A stretch of DNA of 64,000 bases, from IMG/VR virus record IMGVR_UViG_3300031823_000003, positions 22,325 to 86,324 of that record; one strand, 5' to 3'. A program made the translations under genes and the position numbers. Positions 1 through 24,399 of this stretch are shown here, one piece after another. The notes under the pieces were generated by a model. That model saw only the letters and a program-made list of their open reading frames with translations, had not been told where the DNA came from and did no database searches. Position 1 is the first letter of the stretch, and each line of letters begins with the position of its first letter. Source of the DNA: a virus.

Positions 1-1824
1 GAGCAACTGTTTTTGCTCCGGAGTTTCGGCGGCACCCGGATCGCTGGACGCAGGCGTACCCGTGCTTGTCTTGGCAAACCGTTTCAGGTCGTTCGGCAGC
101 GGCTGACCGCTCATGTTCTGCTGCCAGTCGGCGGCGATACTCTCTCCGGCTTTGGTGGTCTCGCGCTGCACAATACCGAATAAATCTTTACGCTGATCTT
201 CCGGCAGCAGACCTTCGCTGGCAAGCGAATAATAACGCCGTAACTTATCCCATAGGCTACCCGTATGCTGTTCCAGTTGCAGTTCCTGTTGTGGCAAACG
301 CACGCTTCCGGGATTCATGGCGCGCACAGCGGCCACTACCATAGCCAAGTCTTGTCGGGGAGTGGCTTTGGCTGGATCGCTATCGACCTCTTTCATGTAA
401 TCTTCCTGCGCGTTGAGCAGGCCGAACAGTGGCTTCATTTTCTGATACGTAGTAGTCGTGGTCTGCTGTGTCTTGGCTTTGGGCTGAGATAGAGTGTGAC
501 CGATTACCCGGTCACCTGATACGCCTGCACCTGCTGCTGTCGGAGTTGATGCGGCTGTGTGTGAAGGCGCGGCAGCAGCAGTAGTAGTCGATGGCTTTGT
601 CGATCCGGCACTGGGTGTGTTACTAGGTGTACTGATCGTGCCACTCGGATGAACCGCTGGAGTCCCGGTCTTTTGCGGCGTCGTGGTCCGTTGCAGTTTG
701 ACCACGTGAATCTCGCCTGTCTCTTTATCCGTGTAGATGTAGTTTTGCTCACTGACTTTGCCCATTTGTCCGGACGCTACCCACGACTGGCGTAATTGCT
801 GTAACGACTCCGCGCTCAGTTCCTTTTCGGGGATACCCGCTTCCTTGGCGACCCGCTCAATGTACTCCTGTTCACTCCCCGGCTTGGCGATCTGCGATGC
901 AGGCGCACGGACCTCTCCGGCGTCAACCCAGTCCGACACTTTGCCGTCGGCGCTTTGATAGCGTTCGTATTTATGGTTATCAGGGCCGATACGGGTATCG
1001 AAAATTTTCTGCTTCTGGCTGTATCCGGACGCTGCTTCGCCGATACGATCGCGCAGTGATTGTACTTTTTGATCGTGCGCTGTCTTTTGTTCGGGTGTCA
1101 TCTGGGACGTATCCGCCATTTCCAGATTACGGAGATCGAGTTTGTCCTGAGTCAGTCCCTCAGCGAGTGCCTGGTCGCCGCGCATCAGTTTGAGTTGTTG
1201 CTGGTACGCGGGACTGGTATACATTGCAGCTTCGCCTGTGTAATCGGGACCAATCTTCTGCCGGATCATCACGGCGGCCTGCAACTTTTGTAATGGGTCG
1301 TTCGATGCCCACATGGCCAGCGGATTTTGCTGGTCACCGGATGCAGATGGACCCGCACCTGAGCCACTTGATTTGCTCTTGGACTTTTTGCCCTTGCCGT
1401 CCTGTTGCCCGAATAGATTCTGGTAGAACTGCTGTTGCACTTGCCATGCGGCGTCGGCTGCGGACTTGGCTTCCTGCACCTCTTTGGAATTGGGATCGGC
1501 ACCGGATTTCAGCATCCCCAGATAGTTGTTCCGCGCTGTCTGATAGTTGTAGTTGAGACCCTGTGCGAGACGTTGTTGCTTGTAGGCGCGGACCTGATTC
1601 GCGTAGTCTCTGCCCCGGAGAGCACCCTTGAGCAGGGAATCAACGACAGTGGCAACTTTGGTTATACCCGCGCCTCGCCCACCGATCAGCGATGGAGACT
1701 GAGGCTGGGCAGTATCCTGCTGCGGTACAGGCGGAGGAGCGGTGATCTCCGGAATCTGCGGCGGAGGGGGAGCCGTATAGGGTGTAGCGCTCGTAGGATC
1801 GTAAGCGGCTGGGTTTTGAGCCAT
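1..1824 (-). CDS. Large Gln/Ala/Pro-rich protein, probable internal virion (DNA ejection) protein; partial, runs off window start
   Basis: Absent from the ORF track because it has no stop in the window. Read by hand from ATG 1824 (MAQNPAAYDPTSATP...), open to base 1. Follows the tail module. Confidence 0.65.
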   Translation of the reverse strand, partial: MAQNPAAYDPTSATPYTAPPPPQIPEITAPPPVPQQDTAQPQSPSLIGGRGAGITKVATVVDSLLKGALRGRDYANQVRAYKQQRLAQGLNYNYQTARNNYLGMLKSGADPNSKEVQEAKSAADAAWQVQQQFYQNLFGQQDGKGKKSKSKSSGSGAGPSASGDQQNPLAMWASNDPLQKLQAAVMIRQKIGPDYTGEAAMYTSPAYQQQLKLMRGDQALAEGLTQDKLDLRNLEMADTSQMTPEQKTAHDQKVQSLRDRIGEAASGYSQKQKIFDTRIGPDNHKYERYQSADGKVSDWVDAGEVRAPASQIAKPGSEQEYIERVAKEAGIPEKELSAESLQQLRQSWVASGQMGKVSEQNYIYTDKETGEIHVVKLQRTTTPQKTGTPAVHPSGTISTPSNTPSAGSTKPSTTTAAAAPSHTAASTPTAAGAGVSGDRVIGHTLSQPKAKTQQTTTTTYQKMKPLFGLLNAQEDYMKEVDSDPAKATPRQDLAMVVAAVRAMNPGSVRLPQQELQLEQHTGSLWDKLRRYYSLASEGLLPEDQRKDLFGIVQRETTKAGESIAADWQQNMSGQPLPNDLKRFAKTSTGTPASSDPGAAETPEQKQLL

Positions 1825-1838
1825 ATTCTAATCCTGAT

Positions 1839-2462
1839 TTAGAACGCAGCTAGCGCATCCAGCAGGCTTGCCCCGCCCTGCTGGCTGCTTGCGATGGAAC
1901 CGATGGTGCCGCCTAGACTACCCAGCATACCGAACTGTTGGCCTTTCTCCTGTGCTTGCAGTTGCTGGCTCTGTATCTGTAACTGTCCCAAACTAGCTAA
2001 TCCAGAATTGGCGGTGCCTAGGCCGCTGATTCCTGTCCCCGCTGCACTGATGGACTCGCCGACGCCTTGACCAGCGAGTTGCCCCAGAGCGTTTGGAGCG
2101 GCCAGAGTGGCCCCGGATGCAGCAGAGGCTATCTGCGCGCCACGGTTAATATCGGTGGCCTCAAGTGCAAGATTTTTCTCGCCGCCTGCCGGACTGTTAG
2201 CGAGGATATTAGATTTAGCACCAGCGGTTGCCTGAGCGGTCTGTTGTGCGGCAGGCGCGATTGCCTGCATGATGGCAGCGGGATCGCCGCTAGCCAGAGC
2301 TTGGTATTTATCTTCGGCTATTTGTAGTCCAGGTTCGGTAAGCTGGTACAGTTGTTCGGCGTTCTTGGCCTGCCCCTGAGCAATGTTAACCAGAGCGGAT
2401 TGATTGCTCTCCATTTCCTGCTGGACCTGCGGCGTGAGTCCGGCTGGCTGTCCCTTGCCCAT
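1839..2462 (-). CDS. Probable small DNA ejection/pilot protein (P22 gp7-like position and composition)
   Basis: 207 aa, Gly/Ala/Gln-rich, starts MGKG, hydrophobic Gly-rich C-terminus, follows a GNAT-like gene. Confidence 0.6.
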   Translation of the reverse strand: MGKGQPAGLTPQVQQEMESNQSALVNIAQGQAKNAEQLYQLTEPGLQIAEDKYQALASGDPAAIMQAIAPAAQQTAQATAGAKSNILANSPAGGEKNLALEATDINRGAQIASAASGATLAAPNALGQLAGQGVGESISAAGTGISGLGTANSGLASLGQLQIQSQQLQAQEKGQQFGMLGSLGGTIGSIASSQQGGASLLDALAAF

Positions 2463-3111
2463 TTGTGATCGAATCTCCAGCTAGTGCCAGCAGTTTACGC
2501 CGGCAGCATAGCTCAAAGTCTGCTCTGGTCAGCGCAGATACCGTACACTCTACCAGACCGCCATCGTGGGTGCGAAGCAGATCGGGGATATTGCCAACGT
2601 CCCTCGCGCCGTACTGCTGCATCCATTTCCCGGCTAAGATATTTGAGGTATAACGCTGGCCTAGGATCGTCCGCAATGAGTGTTGGGAGAACAGGTAGGC
2701 GAGACCGAGCATACCGAGGATAACGGATTCAGAGGTCCCCCACCAAGGCTTAAAGTAGCAAAAAGCTGCAAAGGCCGAGTTGGCAGATGGGGATAGGATA
2801 ATCTCCGTCGGCCAAGCGAATCCGGCGGGAGTAAACTCAGTGAGTGATGTGTGCTTGCATAATAGAATGACCTGACGGTTAGCCAGATAAGAGCAGATCG
2901 CATCCGCCGACAGATCAGCCATTCCGCAAAAAGTCTCCGGCAGAACTCCGTATGGAGATGATGGACGGGACAACAGGCATTGTGAATAGAGATAATGAAT
3001 ATAATTTGTGCCGAAAACTGGAACCCGCGTGCGGTCATAGGGAATGACTTGCAGATCGCCGAGTCGGTAGTTGTCCAGTTTGAGCGCGTCGATGATGGGA
3101 GAGTCACTCAC
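2386..3111 (-). CDS. GNAT-fold acyl/acetyltransferase-like protein
   Basis: Likely GTG start at 3111. Segment LAYLFSQHSLRTILGQRYTSNILAGKWMQQYGARDVGNIP resembles RimJ/RimL-type GNAT motif B. Same position as GNAT-like genes of other podoviruses. Confidence 0.55.
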   Translation of the reverse strand: MSDSPIIDALKLDNYRLGDLQVIPYDRTRVPVFGTNYIHYLYSQCLLSRPSSPYGVLPETFCGMADLSADAICSYLANRQVILLCKHTSLTEFTPAGFAWPTEIILSPSANSAFAAFCYFKPWWGTSESVILGMLGLAYLFSQHSLRTILGQRYTSNILAGKWMQQYGARDVGNIPDLLRTHDGGLVECTVSALTRADFELCCRRKLLALAGDSITNGQGTASRTHAAGPAGNGEQSIRSG

Positions 3112-3223
3112 TCGGCGCATCCTCATCGTGGCCGTCGGGAAGTTTATCCCAACCGTTTTCCATGCGGACAGCGTGGTAGTCAATGCTGCGGGTGTCCTTG
3201 CGTCTGATTCTGTGCTGGCTCAT
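3104..3223 (-). CDS. 39-aa micro-ORF (MSQHRIRRKDTRSIDYHAVRMENGWDKLPDGHDEDAPSE)
   Basis: ATGA overlap with the ACP stop and GTGAGTGA overlap with the GNAT start, i.e. coupled on both sides. Confidence 0.5.
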   Translation of the reverse strand: MSQHRIRRKDTRSIDYHAVRMENGWDKLPDGHDEDAPSE

Positions 3224-3498
3224 TGTGCGGCCGTCTCTGCTTCTGCTGCTATCGCTGACTTTTTATCAATCCACGCCTCGGCGTATCTCACGATCTGGTC
3301 CACGGTGACGAGCTTGAACAGGTCATCATCGGGAATTGGACCGATGGATAGTTTTTCATCCAGCGCAAGTGCCAGATGTACGAAATCAAGACTGTCCAGT
3401 CCGAGATCACCGATCAAAGTGGAATCGAGACTCGGCGATTTCCCTGATTCTTCGGCGACACAGTGCAGGACGATATTGACGACCTCATCGTGAGTCAC
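3220..3498 (-). CDS. acpP: Acyl carrier protein
   Basis: 92 aa, acidic, DLGLDSLDFV phosphopantetheine motif (Ser36), PDDD..LVTVDQIVRY C-terminal helix pattern. Confidence 0.9.
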   Translation of the reverse strand: MTHDEVVNIVLHCVAEESGKSPSLDSTLIGDLGLDSLDFVHLALALDEKLSIGPIPDDDLFKLVTVDQIVRYAEAWIDKKSAIAAEAETAAQ

Positions 3499-3503
3499 AG
3501 AGA

Positions 3504-3995
3504 TTACCTCTCCAGTAGAGTTTTGATCGTGTCGGCCAGTCCGAGTATGAATAGTGCTATCGACGAATACGCCAGCGCCAGTGTGGTCGCATATTTCGGA
3601 GCGGTGTAATTGGATGAACCAGTGTATTTGGCGTTCGGTGGCGGTGGGGCGTAGTCGAACGGCGGCGGCAAATTCTTTGGGTACTTGGCATGCAGGTACG
3701 CCTCATAGCAGACCGCCGTCCAGACATTGAACAGTAGAGCTTGAATCGCAGCCGCAATCAGCAGGGTAGCGGGTACAGGCTGACGATGATAAGCGCAGAG
3801 CAGAGCGAGTGCCAGAGCGACGCCGAATATGACGTAATAGAACCTGCGGAATAATGCGTAGGGCGCGAAGAACGATCCCCGGTCAGCGCCCCAGTCCATT
3901 TCGTAGACGCGGCCACGGAGACCGGCCCAGAATGAACTGCACAGACCGAGAGGGAGCAATATGACCAGAAGTATTATGAATAACGTGTCACTCAT
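3504..3995 (-). CDS. Multi-pass membrane protein (about 4 TM segments)
   Basis: Four long hydrophobic stretches in 163 aa. Confidence 0.7.
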   Translation of the reverse strand: MSDTLFIILLVILLPLGLCSSFWAGLRGRVYEMDWGADRGSFFAPYALFRRFYYVIFGVALALALLCAYHRQPVPATLLIAAAIQALLFNVWTAVCYEAYLHAKYPKNLPPPFDYAPPPPNAKYTGSSNYTAPKYATTLALAYSSIALFILGLADTIKTLLER

Positions 3996-4005
3996 GCCTA
4001 TGCTC

Positions 4006-4284
4006 CTACGCTCTCCCTGCGCCCGGAATAAATTGTCCCGCTCCGGGTACTTGTATCTTCGGCGGGTCCAGTGCCTGGATCACACCTTCGATATTGATGC
4101 ATGCCGCCGCCAGTCCCTGCATAGCCGGATGATATACAGGCATATCGAATGACAGGAGCGCATTGCGGTAGGCGAGGCCGATGGCATCGCGGACCTTGCG
4201 CAGTTCGACAGCGAGAGCTTCGGCGCGGGGGCTGGGATCGATAGTGACGGTGACGGTGAGAGATTGTTGCTCGGTGACAGGCAT
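4006..4284 (-). CDS. Hypothetical protein
   Basis: 92 aa ORF tiling the operon. Confidence 0.6.
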   Translation of the reverse strand: MPVTEQQSLTVTVTIDPSPRAEALAVELRKVRDAIGLAYRNALLSFDMPVYHPAMQGLAAACINIEGVIQALDPPKIQVPGAGQFIPGAGRA

Positions 4285-4292
4285 GCTCGGAA

Positions 4293-4706
4293 TTAACCTT
4301 TCTTATAGGCGCGGTTAGCTAAAAATTCTTTCACTGCTGTCTCCAGTGCATCCCCGATCCCGGTGAATTTTTCCCGGCGCACTACTTTGTACAGTTGTTC
4401 CCTGAGACTGGATTCCAGCCGGAATGACACCGTGACTCTGGGAACCGATTCGGGCGTGTATTGGCGGTATTTGCGGGATGATTTACGAAGAGATCGAGAC
4501 GGCTTACGAAGAGACTGAGACGACTTCTGCTTACTCCGGGTACGGCGGGGAGAACTGGAAGACTCAGCATGAACAGTATCAGCGGAGCCAGCCACTCCAT
4601 CTGCGTCGCCGTCATGCCCCCTCGTATTGTCGTTCTCAGTCTTCCCGCTTGCGCTTTCAGCGCTATCATCACACACGCTCACTGAGGCCGCACCCGGTTC
4701 CGTCAT
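4293..4706 (-). CDS. Ribbon-helix-helix DNA-binding protein with disordered N-terminus
   Basis: C-terminal RVTVSFRLESSLREQLYKVVRRE..GIGDALETAVKEFL is an RHH pattern. Confidence 0.7.
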   Translation of the reverse strand: MTEPGAASVSVCDDSAESASGKTENDNTRGHDGDADGVAGSADTVHAESSSSPRRTRSKQKSSQSLRKPSRSLRKSSRKYRQYTPESVPRVTVSFRLESSLREQLYKVVRREKFTGIGDALETAVKEFLANRAYKKG

Positions 4707-4714
4707 TGCTGGTT

Positions 4715-4743
4715 AACGTATACGAACAGGTATACGATGTCAA
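4715..4743 (-). promoter_or_regulatory. Sigma70-like promoter of the RHH gene overlapped by two GTATACGA boxes
   Basis: TTGACA (4743-4738)-17 nt-TACGTT (4720-4715); CGTATACGA at 4717-4725 and GGTATACGA at 4729-4737. Confidence 0.6.
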
Positions 4744-4761
4744 GGCAAATTTGCGAATGGG

Positions 4762-5055
4762 TTACTCAATGGGTATGTCGATCTTCGTCCCCTGCCATGC
4801 CAGCAGCCGGGCATTGATGGATTTGCGGGTAGAGTGGCGGTTACGCAGAGCGGGGATGATTACGTTCTCCCGCCATTTGCCGATGTCGCCACCGAATCGC
4901 TGCTGGAGTTCGTCGAGGCTGATGCCGAATGTTTCGGCGACACCTTGGATTACGTGACCGTCATCGTCGGTCTCTTCGATCGACGCGGTGATGGTGTGAT
5001 GGCCATTGACGGCGTTGATGTCAGCGGAGTGCGTTACCAGTTGGAGCTTAGGCAT
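4762..5055 (-). CDS. Hypothetical protein
   Basis: 97 aa ORF in operon. Confidence 0.6.
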   Translation of the reverse strand: MPKLQLVTHSADINAVNGHHTITASIEETDDDGHVIQGVAETFGISLDELQQRFGGDIGKWRENVIIPALRNRHSTRKSINARLLAWQGTKIDIPIE

Positions 5056-5061
5056 GAACAG

Positions 5062-6090
5062 TCACAGTCTCCCGAATAGACGAACACCGGCACCAATGTT
5101 AACGACAGGTGGAGTACTGCCCGCACCTGAATTTACGGTATCAACCCCATTATTATTTACCACAACTACAGCAATCAGCGTGCTTCCGTCGAGACTGGGA
5201 TTGGTTCCGCCAGCAAACGACAGCCGGCTGGTCCATAAATCAGAAGCAAAAGGTCCGGTGCGGAACAGCACACTTTGTCCTACTCGTCTGCTGTAGTAAT
5301 ACACTCCATTCAAGGATACAACTCCACCTGTAGCCGTGGCATTCGGCCCACTTTGATTAAACGTGAACGTCGGCGTCGATGTCGGCGCAACTAGTAATTG
5401 CTGCCCGTTGAACGATGGATCGGTAGCTCCGGAGATCACCACAGTCTCGCCGGGACCGAGAACATTGATACCGGTAGTTGATCCCGTGACCACGCCGCCC
5501 GCTCTGGTCATGGTGGCAATCCCGTAATTTGTCGGCAGGGTAAGCGAGTCATTGAACGTTGCGTAGGGTTCCTGGTGGCCGTCCACAAACTGATGAAATC
5601 CTGCGGTGATGGTGACAGGCACGAATCCACCGGACGGCGTGCCGGGGATCACAGCGGACGTATTGGACGTAGGAGCCACACCAATTACGGAATTGAGGAA
5701 TGTTGAGTATCGTTCCTGCTGTACCCGGTCATTGATACGGCGATAGGACTGGAGCACCTGTTTGCCAAGCGCTTGGAATTGCGGCGCGAGCGCAGCGGCT
5801 CCAAAATTGGAGTTGGCAAATGCCAATGGGACTACATCGCCGTCGGTCTCCGGCATACCTACGTTACGGACCGGCTTACCTCCGAAGTTTGCGCCGGCTT
5901 TGAAATAGGGAGGTTCGCCGCCGTGGCCGAGGATGTAGTTCAGGAGTTGAGCGTGGTTCTGGATGATGTTGTTGAGCAGAGCCGGGTCTTTAAGATCGTC
6001 GGCGGTGAGAGTGATCTGTTGCAGAGGCGCAGGAGGAGACGATGATGGAGCCGATGGGGCAGCAGGAGGAGTGGTGGGGATGGTTGCCAT
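5062..6090 (-). CDS. Probable tail/virion structural protein with FCCH-like beta module
   Basis: 342 aa; TRAGGVVTG..GETVVISGATDPSFNG module shared with other tail proteins here. Confidence 0.55.
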   Translation of the reverse strand: MATIPTTPPAAPSAPSSSPPAPLQQITLTADDLKDPALLNNIIQNHAQLLNYILGHGGEPPYFKAGANFGGKPVRNVGMPETDGDVVPLAFANSNFGAAALAPQFQALGKQVLQSYRRINDRVQQERYSTFLNSVIGVAPTSNTSAVIPGTPSGGFVPVTITAGFHQFVDGHQEPYATFNDSLTLPTNYGIATMTRAGGVVTGSTTGINVLGPGETVVISGATDPSFNGQQLLVAPTSTPTFTFNQSGPNATATGGVVSLNGVYYYSRRVGQSVLFRTGPFASDLWTSRLSFAGGTNPSLDGSTLIAVVVVNNNGVDTVNSGAGSTPPVVNIGAGVRLFGRL

Positions 6091-6501
6091 CTATTTCCTC
6101 GATTTCGGGCGCGGACGCGGCACCTGACAGATTGGTTCCGGTGCACAGTCCCGCACTCGCTTGTCATGCCCAGCCTGAATAAAATCATCTTCATCGTCAC
6201 TCAGCCGCATGACCATCTCCGGCCCGATCTCATGGGACTCGAAGTACTCGTTAAAGTGGACGTTGCAGGCATCCATAACCACGCCTTCTGGTGTAAATAT
6301 CCGGTAGACTACTTTCCACTTGCAGTACTTTTTGACAATGAAGTCCTGCGCGGCGGAATGAGTGCGGGTAGAGATTTTGTAGCATTGCAATGCGGGAATG
6401 GAGATGGGCACAGGTGCAGTCACGGGTTCAGCGCGGGGCAGAGATTTACCGTTCGATCGTTCGGCTACCGTAGCTGTGGCTGCACTCGCTCCCGCGCTCA
6501 T
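6091..6501 (-). CDS. Hypothetical protein
   Basis: 136 aa, abuts both neighbours. Confidence 0.55.
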   Translation of the reverse strand: MSAGASAATATVAERSNGKSLPRAEPVTAPVPISIPALQCYKISTRTHSAAQDFIVKKYCKWKVVYRIFTPEGVVMDACNVHFNEYFESHEIGPEMVMRLSDDEDDFIQAGHDKRVRDCAPEPICQVPRPRPKSRK

Positions 6502-6503
6502 AG

Positions 6504-9500
6504 TTAACCCGACACCAGTTCGCTTCTCTGATAACCCTTCGATCCCGGCCCGATAACAGGTTTTTGTTCGACCACAATTGGTGCCCAGATTTGCAGGTCG
6601 TTGTCCGCCGGATTAGGACTGGTACTTGCCATAATAACCCTGAACAGTCTTAGCTTCATAGCTGGCAAACGTTCCCGTACCGGGACTTCGATGCGATTGG
6701 GATTGGCCGGGAGAGTCAATGTGTAGTATGGCACACTCGATCCATCGGCGAAAAAGCTGACTACTACCGGGAGAGATGCCGTGTAGTCGATGTAAATTTG
6801 TTTCACCAGCTTGGATTCATCGCTGCCCCACTTGACGAAGTATGAGTCATAAGTGGCGCGCTGTTCGGGTAGGACGGCAATTTCGATGTCAGCTTGGTAA
6901 ATGATCGGCGCGGCGGTTACCGATCCTGTGATTACAAGGCTGGTGCGATAGGCTTCCACTCCATCGCCTGAGTTGATATCGAACTGGTATTTGGTGCGGA
7001 TAGTGCCGGTGAGCGTGCCCAGAGTGATCGGGGGTACTGAGCCGTTGTTGTCGTCGAACTGTAATTGGACGGTCAGGGTTTGATTGTTTGGATTTGCGTC
7101 TATCGCTAGGTTCTGGATTTGTTTCTGATTGTTCGGAGCGCCGAAGTCCAGAAATGGAGTCTGGAGATTAAGTGCAATTGGTATCTTGACCAGTGCCCCG
7201 CCGACCCAGCCGCCGTCATCGTAATCCTTGGTAATATCCTCATAGACGATCGCCCAGCCGGATTGCGATCCCGCTGTGATTGGGATTGAATAGACGAGTT
7301 GATTGGTGTCTTCCTCAGCCAATATAGCGGTTGCCGCAACGTCGTCATTGCGCCAGCGTTTATAGGACTGGCTCCAGCGTAGCCTGTGCTGGTTGCCATC
7401 TATGCCCGTATACACAAATGTAACCGTATTGTTCTTGAACGCCGACACCACATTGCCCAGCAGCGACAGGTTGACCAGTGGCACCGGAGTCAGCGGATTG
7501 TTGCGGTACAGCCACTCGATAATCAGCGACCGATAATCCGCCAGACTTCCCGAAAACGCCCTTATACCGTCGAAACTCTGTTCGTACACTTCGTTCTCTG
7601 TAATCGACCAGTCGAAACTCGCGGGCGATCCATGCTTCGATCCAGTGCTCTGCATGTATGGCGGCGATCCGGGGAATACCTGATAGTGGGACGAAAATGT
7701 ACGTACAAATATTGTGCCCCGGAAATTGTACACCGCGCTGATGGGGTCACTGGGTCCACCGGGACTGGGAATATAGTTCTGTGGCGGGCAGTTCTCCGGG
7801 TATCCGCGCGGAGTGTAGTAAAGCAGATGGGGATTGTTCGGGTCGCCCGCCAGCCAAGTTTGACCATAACCGGACGCTGCTAGATTGCATGCCACAGCAG
7901 GCTTCGAGAATACCTGTACCTGTTCGCCGATCGCATGCGGCAGGAATATGTAACAGGTGAACGTCCCGGTCCCGCCTGCCACGACAAATGCCTGCTCCAA
8001 GTTTTGTGGGGTGCCGATGACGACGATCTGGCCGACGAGGAATGTAGCGGTTGCGTTAGTGACATTGACAGTGACCAGCGTAGGAAAGTTTGTGCCAGCG
8101 GGAGCAGGAGCAAGCGCGCCTGTCAGTGTAGTCGCAATTGGATTCTGTAACGTGGATGTGACAGGCACGTCATTTTGTAGATTGAGAATGTTGCCTTGGC
8201 TCAGCGCGCTGTCAGGAAGAATGTACTGATAGCTGAATGTTCCTGTGCCCGTGACATTGGGGAATTGATCCGCATAATACCAGTTATTGCCATAGAGTCC
8301 GCCGCGAGCGTAGACACGGACATGGGTGACACGCGGATTGGGCGAGTACTGGCCGCTTAGATTGATTGCCTGGCGCAGCGGGACCAGAGTGGACTCGCCC
8401 CCCGGATTCGACGGCGTAATCGAAAACATTGCCTCCCAGCACCCATTCGACTCCGTCATCGTAGTGGCGTCGTAATACGTGTACCGGAAATCGTATCCGA
8501 CCCCGCCGTAGCTTGATGCACCCGCGTTTGTTCCTACACCTGATGCAGTCGGATTACCCTGAATATACAGCCCGTTAAACGCGATCGTCGTGGACCCCTG
8601 CGTGTTGGTGACTACCTGCACCTGCCATCCTGTGATCGCCGACCAGTCATTACCCGGCGTGCCCGCGTTGCCGACCGGCAGAAAGTCCCCCAGTTGCATG
8701 TAGATCACCGACCACGAACCTTGACCAGATGACATCTGCGACGGCTGGATTTGCGGCAGAGTGGGATCGTTGCCGGGGAGATTAGTAGGCTGACCCAACT
8801 GTTGCACGTTGGTGATCCCGGTGGCGAGAGAGAATACCTCATTGACCATCGCGGTGGTCGGATCGTTGGTTTGCGGGAGAGAGATATTCCCTTGGTAACT
8901 GACCGGGACGATTGTTTTCGAGTAGTAGTTTGCCGTATACCCGCTGCCATTGACATCGAATTGCACGCTGATCTGCTGCACGGCGGCGGGATTGGATACT
9001 TTCATCACCAGCACGATAAGGTCAGCGGGATTGTATTTGCCGAAATTGAGCGCGACGGTTTTGCCGACGTTGGTCGTGGAGTTAGAGGCGAAGGTGAACT
9101 GGACCTGCTTGAACACGAATGAGTCTGTCGGCGAATAAGCGTTGTTGAGCGCGACGATATCATAAGTGTTGTTGGCGCGATTAGTATTGAATTTGAGACG
9201 GAGAGCGGCGTCGGCCAGAGTGCCGGAGAGAGCGAGCATACCGTCGGGAGCGGCGGAATAAGAGAGAGTGGCATCGGTGTACTGGTCGTAGTTGCCCGAT
9301 AATATGGGCGTGGCAGATGTACCCGCGACAGTGGCAGCGGTAGAGAGCACGCCGGATACGCCGTAGCCGGATGCGGACTGGAACGAGTCAATCAGGGATA
9401 TTTGCGGCGCGTACTGAATAGCGGTAATCGGGACTACCGGAGGAGCGATGCCGATAGAGGTAGGGGAGCCGGTACCATTATCTTTGAGCGGATTGAGCGA

Positions 9501-19687: not shown

Positions 19688-22495
19688 TCAGTGCTGTGTC
19701 TGTGTGGTTTGCAGGAACGCGGCGTTCAGTGTGGACAGATTGACGCCATAGTCGGTGCCATCGGACGCCGAGTTGTGATAGACACTGGTGGGAACCAGAC
19801 CATAATTACCGATGCTGGCGTCATTTGGGTCAAATGCCGCGCCGTTCATCATCCCTATCATGCCGATACACGCTGAGGTTGCGGTCGATCCGGGGCATAC
19901 CGTGGCAGCGGGAAATGTCAGGGTGCACGTTGCGGAGCCGCAATTGTTCCCGGCGTTGACGCCGCCGACCTCCATATATTTTGCCGAACATCGACCGGGA
20001 AACGGGTTGTAGGTCACAGTCGAGTTCGTGGTATCGACTTCATTTTCTGAACATCCTATTGCTGATGCTCCGGATGCACAGCCCTCGACGTTGCCATCGC
20101 CTTGTGCAACCCAGCCAGTCCAGCCTGTGCCGGGAGTAGCTGGGCACGACGGCGCGGAACTGAGGTCGAACGCAAATAGGTTGTTCTGCCAAGTTGCGTT
20201 TTGCAGGAATTGATTCGCCGGACATGTGCCCATCTGCTCGACAGTGCCGAATCCGGATGCAGACTCGGTTGCACCAGTTTGCAGCCAAGTGATGTTGCCG
20301 CCGGATTGACCCGCGTAATAGAACGTCCCGTTGAGATCAGATGGCGTCATGCCACTGACTTCGACAATGATCTCGGTAGTGCCAGCGGCGACAGGCCACC
20401 CGGTAAGACTGGGAATAGTTGCGGTGACGATGCCACCAGAGCGCGATAATACTGTCGGTGTTTGAGCGTGCGTCGGGCCGGGGCAGTTAGTACCCGTGTC
20501 GCTCCAGATCGTGGTCGCGGTGCCAAAGAACATGCGGCCATTATTCTTGGCTGCGTCCGTAGTCTGCATGACGAGTGTATTGTGGGTGAATTGTAGGTAA
20601 GCGGGGACGCCTTCCATATTTTGCACAACGCAGCCTGTCGCACTGGATGAGCTGGCGGACGGTTGAGAATAGACGACGGTCAGTCCATACGGGTTAGTGC
20701 CGGAGAGAGCGATAGCGCCACGGGACGTAGAGAGAGTGAAATTGTTACCTGTTCCTGTTGGCGAATTCCAAGTTGAGTCCGAGCATCCGGTCACGAGCAC
20801 CGGATCACCGGGGAATATCTGGGTTTCTTGTAGACCCGCACCGCCGTTACCGCATACAAGTGAGACTGTCCCACTGGTCTGTGTACCGTTGCAAATGAAT
20901 GCCTGCCCGAACCCAGTGACCTGCATCCCGGACGGAAATGCCACTATGCCGGATGCGTCGTACACGCTGGAGTTGCCGAGATCGTAAAGGAGATTGTTCG
21001 TGATATTGATGCGGCGTGATGCCCCGGCAGTGCCGCCGCCGTTGCCGATGGTGTAGTTGGAGCGGCCAATCATGGATAGTCCCGTGAGCGCGTGGCGGCA
21101 GAGATTGTTGCGGTAGGTAATGTCGGTGATGGTGGCGGTGTAGTTATCGCATGGACTGGTGTTCGAGCAATTCCGGGGATTGGCGGTAAAGCACTGCCCT
21201 TGCTGCGCGCCGGAAGTGTCCGAGTATTCGACGATATTAGTGTCGTACAGCACACGCTGTGCGGTCTTGAGTTCAGTGCGGTTCTTGAGATCGAGAGAGG
21301 TAGCGCCTGTGTATGCCGTGCCGACCCATGACGGAGGCTGCGTGAAGCGATTGTGCCAGAGATCGAGATCGTAAGCGTAATAGTTGGAGTCCTGGCTGGA
21401 TACGCCGCCGACAAAGAACCCGCTGGATGCCCCGGAGATCCATGAATTACCAAGGAAAAATGGTCCGGGAGTCTCGGCGATGGCGACGGCATGGCCTTCG
21501 TTGGCCGCGCGAATGTCGTAGTCGATATAGGTGTCGGTGATCCCGCAGCGGCGGCAGTTGGCCATATGCATGAAGGTTGAGATTTGGTTAGTGCCGGGGC
21601 CGCCACTGTTCGATGAGGTGACGCATGAGCCTGTGCCTGTAGCTGTGGTACACCAGTCCTTGGCATCGCCGTGGCCGTAGATGCCGACGAACCAGATGTC
21701 CGAGGCGGTCTGGGATACGAGAGTGTGCGGCGTGCCGTAGGCGTCTACATCGGTGTTGATGACATTGCCCGCGAGGGTGACGGTGGTCTTGGGCCGGAAC
21801 TCAAAGTACATAAAGGCGTAATGTGACGGTCCGATATTGGTGGTTGCGTCCCATGTGCCGGATTGGATCAGTAGTCCCTGATTACCGGGAGTCCAGTTGC
21901 CCTCGAATGTAGGCATGGAGCCAATGTCGTTGGAGCAGCCATTATTACCGGATGACCACCATGTAGAGATGTCGCCTGATGGCGGCTGACGAGTGGCAGT
22001 GGCGTCGGTGATCCCGTGCGAGCAGACGGTCTGGCCGAGAGTGAGCGGAGTGTCGGACTCGAATACGATAAATTTAGCGGGGGCTGATCCACTGACTATC
22101 TTAGTTACCAGTGTCAGATTGACAAACGGTCCTTCTCCCTGAGAGCACGTGTATCCCGGCGTCTGCATGGAGATTAGCGTTCCGTGCGTCACTTGGATCA
22201 GCCACCACTGGTCGGCGGCGGCCACCCAGTCACAGATATCTTGTTGCAGGTTGGCAAATGTTGTGGCCGTGCGCGTGACATCGAATACGCCGCCGGGAGG
22301 AAATATTTCGGCAGGTTCGCCGAGCGATGTGAGCGGGATGAATTGTGGGAGGGCGGCAGTGGTCAAGTTGGCATTGCTGAGCCGGATGTTATTGCTGATC
22401 CGGGTGCCGGGAGTAACGCGCTCTTGAGCGCTCAGCGATACGTGCAGCAAGACGACAACCAGAGCCATCGCTACCGACTTGGCCACCATCTTCAT
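19688..22495 (-). CDS. Secreted right-handed beta-helix (pectin-lyase-like) protein, possible depolymerase or adhesin
   Basis: Signal MKMVAKSVAMALVVVLLHVSLSA; KNRTELKTAQRVLYDTNIVE, DITYRNN, RINITNNL beta-helix rungs. Confidence 0.7.
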   Translation of the reverse strand: MKMVAKSVAMALVVVLLHVSLSAQERVTPGTRISNNIRLSNANLTTAALPQFIPLTSLGEPAEIFPPGGVFDVTRTATTFANLQQDICDWVAAADQWWLIQVTHGTLISMQTPGYTCSQGEGPFVNLTLVTKIVSGSAPAKFIVFESDTPLTLGQTVCSHGITDATATRQPPSGDISTWWSSGNNGCSNDIGSMPTFEGNWTPGNQGLLIQSGTWDATTNIGPSHYAFMYFEFRPKTTVTLAGNVINTDVDAYGTPHTLVSQTASDIWFVGIYGHGDAKDWCTTATGTGSCVTSSNSGGPGTNQISTFMHMANCRRCGITDTYIDYDIRAANEGHAVAIAETPGPFFLGNSWISGASSGFFVGGVSSQDSNYYAYDLDLWHNRFTQPPSWVGTAYTGATSLDLKNRTELKTAQRVLYDTNIVEYSDTSGAQQGQCFTANPRNCSNTSPCDNYTATITDITYRNNLCRHALTGLSMIGRSNYTIGNGGGTAGASRRINITNNLLYDLGNSSVYDASGIVAFPSGMQVTGFGQAFICNGTQTSGTVSLVCGNGGAGLQETQIFPGDPVLVTGCSDSTWNSPTGTGNNFTLSTSRGAIALSGTNPYGLTVVYSQPSASSSSATGCVVQNMEGVPAYLQFTHNTLVMQTTDAAKNNGRMFFGTATTIWSDTGTNCPGPTHAQTPTVLSRSGGIVTATIPSLTGWPVAAGTTEIIVEVSGMTPSDLNGTFYYAGQSGGNITWLQTGATESASGFGTVEQMGTCPANQFLQNATWQNNLFAFDLSSAPSCPATPGTGWTGWVAQGDGNVEGCASGASAIGCSENEVDTTNSTVTYNPFPGRCSAKYMEVGGVNAGNNCGSATCTLTFPAATVCPGSTATSACIGMIGMMNGAAFDPNDASIGNYGLVPTSVYHNSASDGTDYGVNLSTLNAAFLQTTQTQH

Positions 22496-24399
22496 CGCAT
22501 ACTCGTTCCCGGCGTGACCCGTGTCCCCGGTGTAAATCTAGTTGCCCCGACTACCGTTCCCGGCGGTGGAATCGGAGCCTGACTCGTATTCAGCATCCCG
22601 TCTGTGTTTGACGCCAGCGTTCCTGTACCCGCGCATAAATCCGAGGCGTTCAGGTCACGGTTGTTGAGACGGCCCAGATTGAATACCTTCTCAATGCACT
22701 TCATGATTGAAGTGAATTCGTAGGGATTGCCGGATGTGGGACCGTGAACGACAGTGTTCTTGGCGAACGGGCCGATCGAGAGGATCGGGGAACGCATGCC
22801 AAGACTGAGTGCATCCTGAGAGACAGGTGCAACGTGATCCGGCTGCCCGCCGAAATCGTCCCATACGATGAATATTTGGCTGTGGTAATAGAGATATTTG
22901 TTGGCGAACACTGCGGCGAGCTTGGACTGCACCCACCCCTGTCCCGCTTGTAGATCGGCGAGCGGAGTAGCAAATCCGGTGCTCGCGTGCTCCGTGTTAG
23001 CTTCGACATTCGCGGTCAGGAATGCAATCTGTGGGAATGTGCTGCTGGCAGTGTTATCGACACATTGATTGCCTTGGCTCAGAGTGACACAATCCGAATC
23101 CAGACTACATGCCGCATGCGGAGTGTTTACACATTGCCCCGTGAGCGCGGCGGCATCGGTATTGAACACAGCGTCGGAAACGTTATAGACAGTCGAATAA
23201 TTGGACCGGAAGAATAATTGTGGCACAAACGTGGACGCCGCGAGCGAGGCATAGTTGCCGTACCATTTCCACGGATGCGGTAGTCCGGCGGTCTCGGCGA
23301 GTTCCGCGATGGTGGTCACGTTAGGACACGCTGCGCCGGGAGTGTTGCCGATAGAGGCTGAAAGTTTACATGTGCCCGAACTGCATGCGGTTGCTGAGAT
23401 ACCGTCATTCGTGCATGACCCGCTGACTACCGTGCTTCCGTCGGTGTAGGACGTGCAATTCGCTGATCCCGCACCGTTGATGTATTTACCAGATTGGCAG
23501 AAACATTTGCAGGCGGTTGTGGCACTGGCTGAACATGATCCCGCTGAGTACCCGGTGCCCGCCGCGAGGCCGTCTCCGGATGGGCCGCAATTTGGGTCGC
23601 CGGACGCGCACACGTTATAGAACTTTGTGCCGTTGTAGATTTCGCCTGGCCCTGTGTATGGAGAACTGGGAGGGGTGCCGGTGCCGCCATTGCCGCATCC
23701 CCATCCGATACTGGGATTGTCGCTGGCCTCGTTGCTGGTCGCGGCGATAATCATCAGGTGATTCGGGTAGGTTGGTCCGGTGAGAGACGAGAAAAACTGA
23801 TCGTTGATACCGTAAGTATTGGCCAGTGACCAGTAGTAGTTGAGGGCGCTGGAGTCGGCGTAATAGTACGAACTGCTGAGACAAGGACCATTCGCGCCCG
23901 AGCTACAATTTGTACCGCCACTTTGAGTGCAGGCTGCGCCGCCAACTGCACAGGTGCCGCCGGCGTTCCAGCCGTTCATCGCCCCGGCGTGGATTGCAGT
24001 CAGAGAGTTAGCGCGGGAGTGGAGCCATGCCGAGTCCGGGAGATTGCCCTGCTGTCCTTGAGGGTTGGTGACAGTCACGAGTTGCTTGTCAATATAGTTC
24101 GTGGTGGACTGAACGCCGATCGTGACATTGCTGCATGTGCCGCCGCCTGTGCATGGAGTGTTGTTGCCGACCGTGCACGAGATTCCTTGCAGAGCATGGT
24201 TGAGGACGCACTGACCGCTGACTCCGGGGAAGGAGCCGAAGTAGTTATCGAAGGTGCGGTTCTCTTGGATGATATACACTACATGATTGACGCAGGGAGG
24301 GCTGAGAGAGGCATTGTAAGGACAGGACTGCCCAGCGCATACTTCTGCTGAAATCATCAATATAGGAATCAGGGAGCGCCAAACAGTCCCGCATCTCAT
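22492..24399 (-). CDS. Phosphoesterase family protein (phospholipase C / acid phosphatase AcpA-type) with signal peptide and Cys-rich inserts
   Basis: HVVYIIQENRTFDNYFG, GPTYPNH, TEHA, WDDFGGQPDHVAP, GMRSP motifs. Confidence 0.9.
   Translation of the reverse strand: MRCGTVWRSLIPILMISAEVCAGQSCPYNASLSPPCVNHVVYIIQENRTFDNYFGSFPGVSGQCVLNHALQGISCTVGNNTPCTGGGTCSNVTIGVQSTTNYIDKQLVTVTNPQGQQGNLPDSAWLHSRANSLTAIHAGAMNGWNAGGTCAVGGAACTQSGGTNCSSGANGPCLSSSYYYADSSALNYYWSLANTYGINDQFFSSLTGPTYPNHLMIIAATSNEASDNPSIGWGCGNGGTGTPPSSPYTGPGEIYNGTKFYNVCASGDPNCGPSGDGLAAGTGYSAGSCSASATTACKCFCQSGKYINGAGSANCTSYTDGSTVVSGSCTNDGISATACSSGTCKLSASIGNTPGAACPNVTTIAELAETAGLPHPWKWYGNYASLAASTFVPQLFFRSNYSTVYNVSDAVFNTDAAALTGQCVNTPHAACSLDSDCVTLSQGNQCVDNTASSTFPQIAFLTANVEANTEHASTGFATPLADLQAGQGWVQSKLAAVFANKYLYYHSQIFIVWDDFGGQPDHVAPVSQDALSLGMRSPILSIGPFAKNTVVHGPTSGNPYEFTSIMKCIEKVFNLGRLNNRDLNASDLCAGTGTLASNTDGMLNTSQAPIPPPGTVVGATRFTPGTRVTPGTSMR

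Follow-up and report, generated by a model that had tools for sequence, protein, structure and literature searches.

According to the available excerpts of PMC4819975, T7, P22, epsilon15 and the RIO-1 group of phages carry a non-structural internal virion protein (IVP) of the acetyltransferase family, IVP-A, ahead of IVP-B, IVP-C and IVP-D; T7 IVP-A, which matches acetyltransferases, is needed for morphogenesis, and these excerpts report nothing further on its function. The excerpts of PMC8954989 describe gp14-like proteins of 181-240 aa, to which predicted transmembrane (TM) helices are ascribed, followed by two larger proteins, together forming the gp14/gp15/gp16 trio. Here we describe a related locus in a 64,000-nucleotide stretch of viral DNA (the window), corresponding to bases 22325-86324 of IMG/VR record IMGVR_UViG_3300031823_000003, a record of 86,324 bp that is estimated to be 84% complete and originates from a podovirus-like phage. 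The locus encodes an orphan acyl carrier protein (ACP), a 39-aa open reading frame (ORF), a GNAT-fold protein and a small protein with a Met-Gly-Lys-Gly start (the MGKG protein, the family of which is termed MGK below). It was found that the GNAT and MGK genes are strictly linked, over GNAT identities down to ~20%, and that the ACP is dispensable for this pair. We propose that the GNAT is an active N-acyltransferase acting on the ejection protein, a proposal to which we assign a probability of about 0.5.

The four ORFs are all situated on the minus strand and are overlapping or tightly packed, as had been described in an initial annotation of the window made from the sequence alone. Genes for an SU10-type portal and adaptor, the major head protein and tail proteins lie upstream of the ACP-GNAT-MGKG run on the same strand, and the minus-strand genes from position 3498 down to position 1 make up the leading part of a podovirus operon for ejection (internal virion) proteins. 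Its order is that of the operons containing T7 gp13 or P22 gp14, namely an acetyltransferase-fold gene, a protein of ~200 aa and two large proteins, downstream of tail genes. The initial annotation had also likened the position of the GNAT-like gene, before the ejection genes, to that in podoviruses, which agrees with the IVP-A slot in the excerpts of PMC4819975 and was recovered throughout both sets of loci described below; an IVP-A-type GNAT heading the ejection operon is the solid, previously known part of this arrangement. New relative to the known podovirus layout are the strict GNAT-MGK order, the widely conserved Gly/Ser-Lys N-terminus and a weak link to an ACP. An ACP gene is attached upstream only in the sub-lineage of the window, and none is mentioned in the excerpts of PMC4819975 or PMC8954989, the latter containing the string 'acetyl' 0 times.

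The gene in the IVP-A slot (2386-3111, minus strand) encodes a protein of 241 aa, which AlphaFold2 modelling and structure searches place close to the RimJ/RimL-like enzymes of the Acetyltransf_3 branch. Its GTG start at 3111 is backed by the starts of its homologues and by a GAGGA element 8 nt upstream. No match was retrieved from Pfam (E <= 1), PHROG or NCBIfam, and none of its 25 close homologues is named. AlphaFold2, supplied with the homologue alignment, returned a model with a predicted local distance difference test score (pLDDT) of 90.3 and a predicted template modelling score of 0.83. Foldseek retrieved at least 365 PDB chains at E <= 0.001, with 8gxf_A on top (E 4.8e-9) and PA3270-type and RimJ/RimL-type GNATs leading the list, whilst VIA-align gave Z scores of 15.2 (3owc_B, root-mean-square deviation (rmsd) 2.4, 159 residues aligned), 15.1 and 15.0 for its top three structures, over 159-181 residues, with RimL at Z 14.9 and RimJ at Z 14.8. 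By both programs, the nearest solved folds are N-acetyltransferases dependent on coenzyme A (CoA). In the viral model library BFVD, a DUF2824 protein (E 9.3e-6) and the 'Internal virion protein A' of Vibrio phage N4 (1.8e-4) were matched, and the neighbours in the protein Atlas are viral GNAT clusters with PF13302 or PF11039. From the predicted structure we are confident that gene 2386-3111 has the GNAT alpha/beta fold, ordered beta1-alpha1-alpha2-beta2-4-alpha3-beta5-alpha4-beta6-7, of the Acetyltransf_3 branch; the GNAT fold that the initial annotation had put forward for checking was thus found by structure search despite the absence of any profile-library match.

A profile search of 1.84 billion representatives retrieved just 186 proteins at E <= 0.001. 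Four remote homologues of ~200 aa, obtained from the GNAT profile search at E 1e-23 to 1e-15, were scanned against PF13302 (cut-off 25.4 bits), which was reached by three of them (P0200, 30.7; P0204, 32.8; P0215, 26.4; against 14.2 for P0209). Within a 54-sequence alignment at ~20-40% identity, an N-x-x-A...G stretch is strongly retained, with Asn157 kept in 52, Gly168 in all 54 and Arg153 in 47 sequences. We take this stretch to be GNAT motif B (N-x-x-A...G-F), which contacts pantetheine, and its conservation argues for a working cofactor site. A catalytic cysteine was considered and rejected: all 25 close homologues retain both Cys62 and Cys189, but sequences from the wider family have G, P or H in place of Cys62, and conservation stays below 85% for both residues. 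Similarly, no fusion of ACP and GNAT was identified in the 150 best family members; the N-terminal extensions (~155 aa) of P0156 and P0162 match no Pfam family, and represent an accessory domain rather than an ACP.

Several relatives carry such a domain, of ~150 aa and without a Pfam family, either fused to the GNAT, C-terminally in some and N-terminally in P0156 and P0162, or lying between the GNAT and MGK genes (L011:6658-7182, L012:6676-7185, L015:6634-7179, L008:6585-6936 and L028-L030:9436-9912). It is absent from the window genome and from all loci in which an ACP adjoins the GNAT, and may serve the GNAT as an alternative partner module.

RimJ/RimL-type enzymes acylate the N-terminal amines of specific proteins, and these and other Acetyltransf_3 GNATs (1s7f, 6c30, 1yre, 3igr) are among the best structural neighbours of the window GNAT (Z 14.8-15.0, rmsd 2.5-3.6, 159-183 residues). 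Their identity to it is 10-16%, however, and the window family has an additional helical region at the N-terminus, a disordered tail whose coding sequence runs into the next gene, and an atypical P-loop. The likeness to IVP-A lies at the level of fold and embedding only (DUF2824), there being no sequence match to T7 gp13 (PF11090) or P22 gp14 (PF11039) at E <= 1. In HlyC-type acyltransferases, a GNAT fold moves an acyl chain from a carrier protein to the epsilon-amine of Lys at Gly-Lys sites in RTX toxins. The present locus resembles HlyC/ApxC-type acyltransferases, and MbtK with its carrier MbtL, in concept, in combining a GNAT fold with a carrier protein; the window GNAT does not match PF02794 at E <= 1, and no dedicated loading-enzyme family was identified among 61 ORFs of the phage. 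None of the GNATs that use acyl-ACP (HlyC/ApxC, LuxI-type, FeeM, MbtK) was present among the matches listed by VIA-align (best 50) or Foldseek, a result that does not extend to families outside these lists. Eukaryote-type N-myristoyltransferase is made up of two tandem GNAT domains in one chain of ~400+ aa, whereas the window GNAT is a single GNAT domain.

The coupling of the GNAT to the MGK gene was evident from either side. A GNAT profile retrieved 12 IMG/VR loci, all 12 with an MGKG homologue downstream, and an MGK profile retrieved 33 loci, each of the 33 with a GNAT directly upstream; nine of these 33 loci originate from the same records as those found with the GNAT profile. The window GNAT, MGKG protein and ACP were also utilized in tblastn searches for cultured relatives among 50,697 phage records, with no match.

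The MGKG gene (1839-2462, minus strand) encodes an Ala/Gly/Gln-rich, predicted helical protein of 207 aa in the gp14/IVP-B slot, which is a candidate first ejection protein and a candidate acyl acceptor. Its size, its first place in the trio and its helical prediction fit a T7 gp14-like protein; the AlphaFold2 model is all helix but of low confidence (pLDDT 62.7), with residues 1-10 unstructured. A simple hydropathy scan found no hydrophobic 19-residue segment (maximum Kyte-Doolittle value 0.88). There was no Pfam or PHROG match, a profile search retrieved zero PDB sequences at E <= 10, and Foldseek found no PDB match at E <= 0.001 using the low-confidence model; none of 389 homologues is named or has a Pfam domain of its own. 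The description of this product as 'ejection-type' in the initial annotation therefore stands as far as position, size, helical prediction and composition go, and finds no counterpart in family, PDB-sequence or fold matches, so that the protein is considered a candidate ejection protein.

The ATG of the MGKG gene is located 77 nt within the GNAT ORF, with a Shine-Dalgarno GGAG and the ATG at 2460-2480 (minus strand), recognized from the sequence and its conservation. The tail of the GNAT is otherwise disordered, yet its 25 close homologues share a conserved 'AGE/AGD...NGQG' motif, which corresponds, in the other frame, to the GGAG plus the ATG GGC AAG GG of the MGKG gene. The MGKG start is considered real because this conserved motif encodes the Shine-Dalgarno element and start codons of the overlapping gene. 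One source's gene call for the window protein (P0026, 191 aa) begins at Met17 and so skips the conserved start. An identical MGKG protein is also encoded on a contig of 102,587 bp. Among relatives, the start codon at this position is ATG, GTG, ACG or ATC behind a Shine-Dalgarno-like element. The ACG (two lineages) or ATC codons at L028-L030:9998, L033:9998 and L054:9893 stand behind GGAG/GAGG, without a canonical in-frame start upstream, and look like non-canonical initiation codons.

Conservation of the Gly-Lys N-terminus, to which the initial annotation had drawn attention, was borne out by the homologues. With the gene starts given by their sources, the best 120 comprise 80 with an X-G(1-5)-K N-terminus, five with X-[GS]-small-K, six longer calls with an inner X-G-K, 16 starting at an inner Met, which are probably short gene calls, and 13 others. 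When N-termini were instead read from the DNA of the 33 loci, 20 had ATG or GTG followed by Gly2 and a Lys by residue 7, six had Ser2 and an early Lys, five had G-K behind ACG or ATC, and two were without an early Lys. The 5-15 residues past the Gly/Ser-Lys motif vary freely. Genomes without an ACP also retain the G-K N-terminus (VGKGGS, MGGTAKG, VGSSSKG, MGGGSKG).

The ACP gene (3220-3498, minus strand) encodes 92 aa and carries an intact serine in its GLDSL motif, as the initial annotation had noted. With 37.1 bits (E 3.8e-9; cut-off 20.8) it scores above the PF00550 threshold, and it also matches the 'acyl carrier protein' family phrog_5934 (7.5e-7). The protein is acidic (isoelectric point 4.2) and is the sole PF00550 match in the 86-kb record; the serine is unchanged in 11 of 11 aligned ACPs from related phages. 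The best NCBIfam rows are ACP models of the fatty acid synthase type, all of which were below their curated cut-offs (35-43 bits against 66-106). Judged by its sequence it is a genuine but divergent ACP that falls short of housekeeping AcpP equivalogs, and it is probably functional as an orphan carrier. No phosphopantetheinyl transferase (PPTase), ketosynthase, acyl-ACP synthetase, AMP-binding or other lipid-enzyme family was found among the 61 non-structural ORFs scanned in the genome, and conversion of the ACP to its holo form and its acylation would consequently depend on host enzymes. Co-folding of GNAT residues 1-218 with ACP residues 1-84, with alignments as input, gave a score of 0.00 and was run without controls, and hence counts neither for nor against binding.

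Between the ACP and GNAT genes lies the 39-aa ORF (3104-3223, minus strand), which overlaps both neighbours: its ATG and the ACP stop share the sequence ATGA, and its TGA end extends 8 nt into the GNAT gene from the GTG start. It has no family match in Pfam or PHROG, no counterpart by tblastn in the 12 GNAT-profile loci, and no blastp match to the ORFs occupying the same gap in L004, L005 and L007, and is a doubtful gene or a spacer remnant. In relatives, the ACP-GNAT gap contains either no gene or one unrelated gene, in one case HNH-like.

The distribution of the ACP was examined by a PF00550 search of 36 virus records, namely that of the window and 35 relatives, with the record behind L035 left out; near-duplicate records of one phage are included (G014/15/16, G020/21, G026/34, G029/31 and G007/8). 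An ACP lies no more than ~0.7 kb upstream of the GNAT in seven records (G000, which contains the window, G001, G002, G004, G011, G017 and G018), that of G011 scoring just 19 bits in Pfam but 2.7e-6 in NCBIfam, and unrelated small genes stand between the two in four of the seven. A further 14 records have an ACP 14-55 kb away from the GNAT. In five of six such loci examined this distal ACP directly follows a DnaB helicase gene (PF03796 and PF00772) of the replication module (L017:4549-6197, L018:4660-6346, L019:7248-8904, L020:3906-5563 and L021:4973-6635); we know of no reason for the pairing of ACP with DnaB. The remaining 15 records contain no PF00550 gene, and consist of ten fragments (5-87% complete) and five records that are 93-100% complete. 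Nine records are at least 90% complete, with a distal ACP in four and none in five. A DnaB query, seeking a second, DnaB-linked ACP in the seven records with an adjacent ACP, matched none of them, all seven being incomplete, and G000 has almost nothing in common with the distal-ACP regions. A distal-type ACP had only four matches in the 50,697 phage records, two from jumbo phages and two from Listeria phages, which was uninformative.

In a GNAT tree, the complete genomes without an ACP formed one clade (support 100/100). With the long-branch rows L045 and L054 removed, the seven rows with an adjacent ACP also formed one clade (96), and the three ACP states required just two changes, whilst in the careful tree of all rows the ACP-adjacent rows stood in an unresolved polytomy. 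As one clade, the seven ACP-adjacent records count as a single relocation event; their GNATs share ~36-59% identity. The link between ACP and GNAT is therefore weak across the family, and of the ACP-GNAT-MG(K)G synteny envisaged by the initial annotation, the order of GNAT, MG(K) and large proteins is kept, but the ACP is adjacent in just seven of 36 records.

These observations are best accommodated, in our view, by a GNAT that is catalytically active and N-acylates the ejection protein, using a CoA or host thioester as its default donor, and it is to this reading that the estimate of about 0.5 applies. During morphogenesis the GNAT would take the acyl group of a pantetheine thioester and transfer it to an ejection-protein amine. 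The most plausible acceptor would be the conserved N-terminus of the adjoining MGKG protein, either at the alpha-amine of Gly2 following removal of Met or at the epsilon-amine of Lys3. The default donor would be acetyl-CoA, acyl-CoA or host acyl-ACP, with a phage ACP beside the GNAT in one sub-lineage and elsewhere in the family behind DnaB or absent. This distribution, and the persistence of the GNAT and the G-K protein in complete genomes without an ACP, indicate that the phage ACP is not an obligatory donor. Several points weigh against the proposal. We know of no enzymatic activity shown for any IVP-A, the window GNAT reaches no Pfam GNAT model at E <= 1, and at the position of motif A it reads (R/K)-P-x-W-G-T/S-x-E, which is atypical relative to the canonical loop (Q/R-x-x-G-x-G/A). 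The choice of acceptor is guesswork based on adjacency and conservation; since the MGK start is embedded in the GNAT ORF, the MGK codons could instead be under selection for translation initiation. No sequence similarity of the MGKG protein to T7 gp14 or P22 gp7 was detected, and whereas TM helices are predicted in gp14-like proteins, the hydropathy scan revealed none in the MGKG protein. Finally, the coupled adjacency of ACP and GNAT, kept within a clade of such divergent GNATs, fits a functional link between the two, and the ACP-adjacent records are 47-84% complete, none being whole, which limits the view of their full gene content.

According to the proposal made in the initial annotation, the ejection protein would be acylated with the help of an ACP provided by the phage itself. 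In this scheme the ACP, converted to holo form by host AcpS and loaded by host fatty-acid synthesis, would pass a long acyl chain to the GNAT, which would lipidate Gly2 or Lys3 of the first-ejected protein for entry into the outer membrane. In favour of it, the ACP of the window stands coupled and directly upstream, an ACP is adjacent to the GNAT in seven of 21 ACP-bearing related records with no more than one variable gene between, and the ACP serine is invariant; the Gly-Lys N-termini are conserved, and a lipid anchor would make sense for an MGKG protein without a hydrophobic segment of its own. GNAT-fold enzymes using acyl-ACP, namely HlyC-type, LuxI-type, FeeM and MbtK with MbtL, also exist. 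However, the scheme loses its main support because most relatives, in which the GNAT and putative acceptor are unchanged, have an ACP away from this locus or none at all, a lack of linkage that the initial annotation itself had named as refuting it: the pair is kept without a PF00550 gene in five of nine relatives at least 90% complete, the ACP is 14-55 kb away in 14 records, usually behind DnaB where examined, and the adjacent cases represent one event. The best structural neighbours of the GNAT are moreover CoA-dependent, no PPTase, acyl-ACP synthetase or ketosynthase family accompanies the ACP, and none of the 150 best family members fuses ACP to GNAT. As originally worded the proposal is thus not supported, and we regard it as unlikely, though possible, that the GNAT of this lineage is fed by the phage ACP. 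The more specific version, in which the IVP-A-type GNAT of this lineage would be a protein lipidase placing a fatty acyl group from the phage ACP on Gly2 or Lys3 of a TM-less first-ejected protein, whilst ACP-less relatives would use host acyl-ACP or acyl-CoA, is if anything less likely.

The GNAT-fold protein may instead, in line with the usual view of IVP-A, be a non-catalytic assembly factor, either a chaperone or a scaffold for the ejection proteins, and the ACP an auxiliary gene without connection to it, acquired at a variable site within the late operon. T7 IVP-A is described in the excerpts of PMC4819975 only as non-structural and required for morphogenesis, excerpts of published papers list phage ACPs among auxiliary metabolic genes, and the interval between the tail gene and the GNAT carries differing small genes among relatives; the lack of a Pfam GNAT match and the atypical motif A-like loop of the window protein point in the same direction. 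An inert scaffold would not, however, need the cofactor-site-like residues that are kept at such low identity (Asn157, Gly168 and, in 47 of 54, Arg153), nor a fold that superposes on CoA-bound enzymes over 159-185 residues, and we consider this explanation improbable. Equally improbable to us is an enzyme with another target, such as another virion protein, a component of the host envelope or a small molecule, with the MGK conservation reflecting initiation or packaging signals. Aminoglycoside, polyamine, sugar-nucleotide and peptide acetyltransferases occur among the structural neighbours besides RimJ/RimL, the ~150-aa domain of no known family fused to the GNAT in some relatives hints at another partner, and the weak or non-canonical start codon of several relatives means that translation may constrain the first few codons. 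Weighing against such a target are the strict adjacency of the two genes (33 of 33), the overlap of the MGK start with the GNAT ORF, which favours co-production, and the retention of Gly/Ser-Lys where the next 5-15 residues vary freely.

Downstream of the MGKG gene, the window contains a gene for a 623-aa protein in the gp15-like slot, assigned by position and size only (1-1824, minus strand, its last 15 codons extending beyond the window). It starts 14 nt past the MGKG stop, has no Pfam family, is followed in the genome by a gene for a 911-aa protein, and has a homologue after the MGKG gene in 11 of the 12 GNAT-profile loci. Directly upstream of the ACP is a gene for a 163-aa protein (3504-3995, minus strand), predicted to be a membrane protein from its hydrophobic sequence; it has no match in Pfam, PHROG or NCBIfam, and tblastn matches to it were found upstream of the GNAT in seven of 12 related loci. 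This gene and that at 4293-4706 (minus strand) occupy a variable zone between a 1150-aa tail protein and the GNAT, within which small genes come and go among relatives. A promoter and terminator scan of positions 1-6600 gave counts no higher than in shuffled sequences. Elsewhere in the virion gene block, a 635-aa protein of the phosphoesterase/phospholipase C family (PF04185, E 2.6e-33) is encoded at 22492-24399 (minus strand). Outside the window, downstream of both large ejection-slot proteins, are genes for a member of the RNA ligase family (PF09414, E 1.4e-19; G000:C1:18656-19456, minus strand) and a right-handed beta-helix protein (PF13229; 13172-15091, minus strand).

The IVP-A proteins, such as T7 gp13 and P22 gp14, have long been known to be needed for infectious particles, without an assigned chemistry. 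The family described here makes the hypothesis that IVP-A is an enzyme concrete, in that a confidently predicted GNAT fold and a conserved cofactor-site-like motif are combined with strict coupling to a small protein in an ejection slot. As Gly-Lys is the only conserved N-terminal feature of the MGK protein, the proposal is that IVP-A would N-acylate the first ejection protein, and since the GNAT/MGK pair can do without an ACP, a general account of IVP-A function has to hold in its absence. In a literature search, no publication was retrieved that describes an acylated phage ejection protein or a virion module combining ACP and GNAT, and phage-made fatty acylation of an ejection protein is a possible and attractive, though unproven, idea. 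If the fatty chain did come from the phage ACP, this would represent the first case of a protein lipidated by a phage and would assign viral ACPs a new role; a tailed phage would then possess a lipid-anchored membrane-penetration protein, an analogue of the myristoylated VP4 of picornaviruses.

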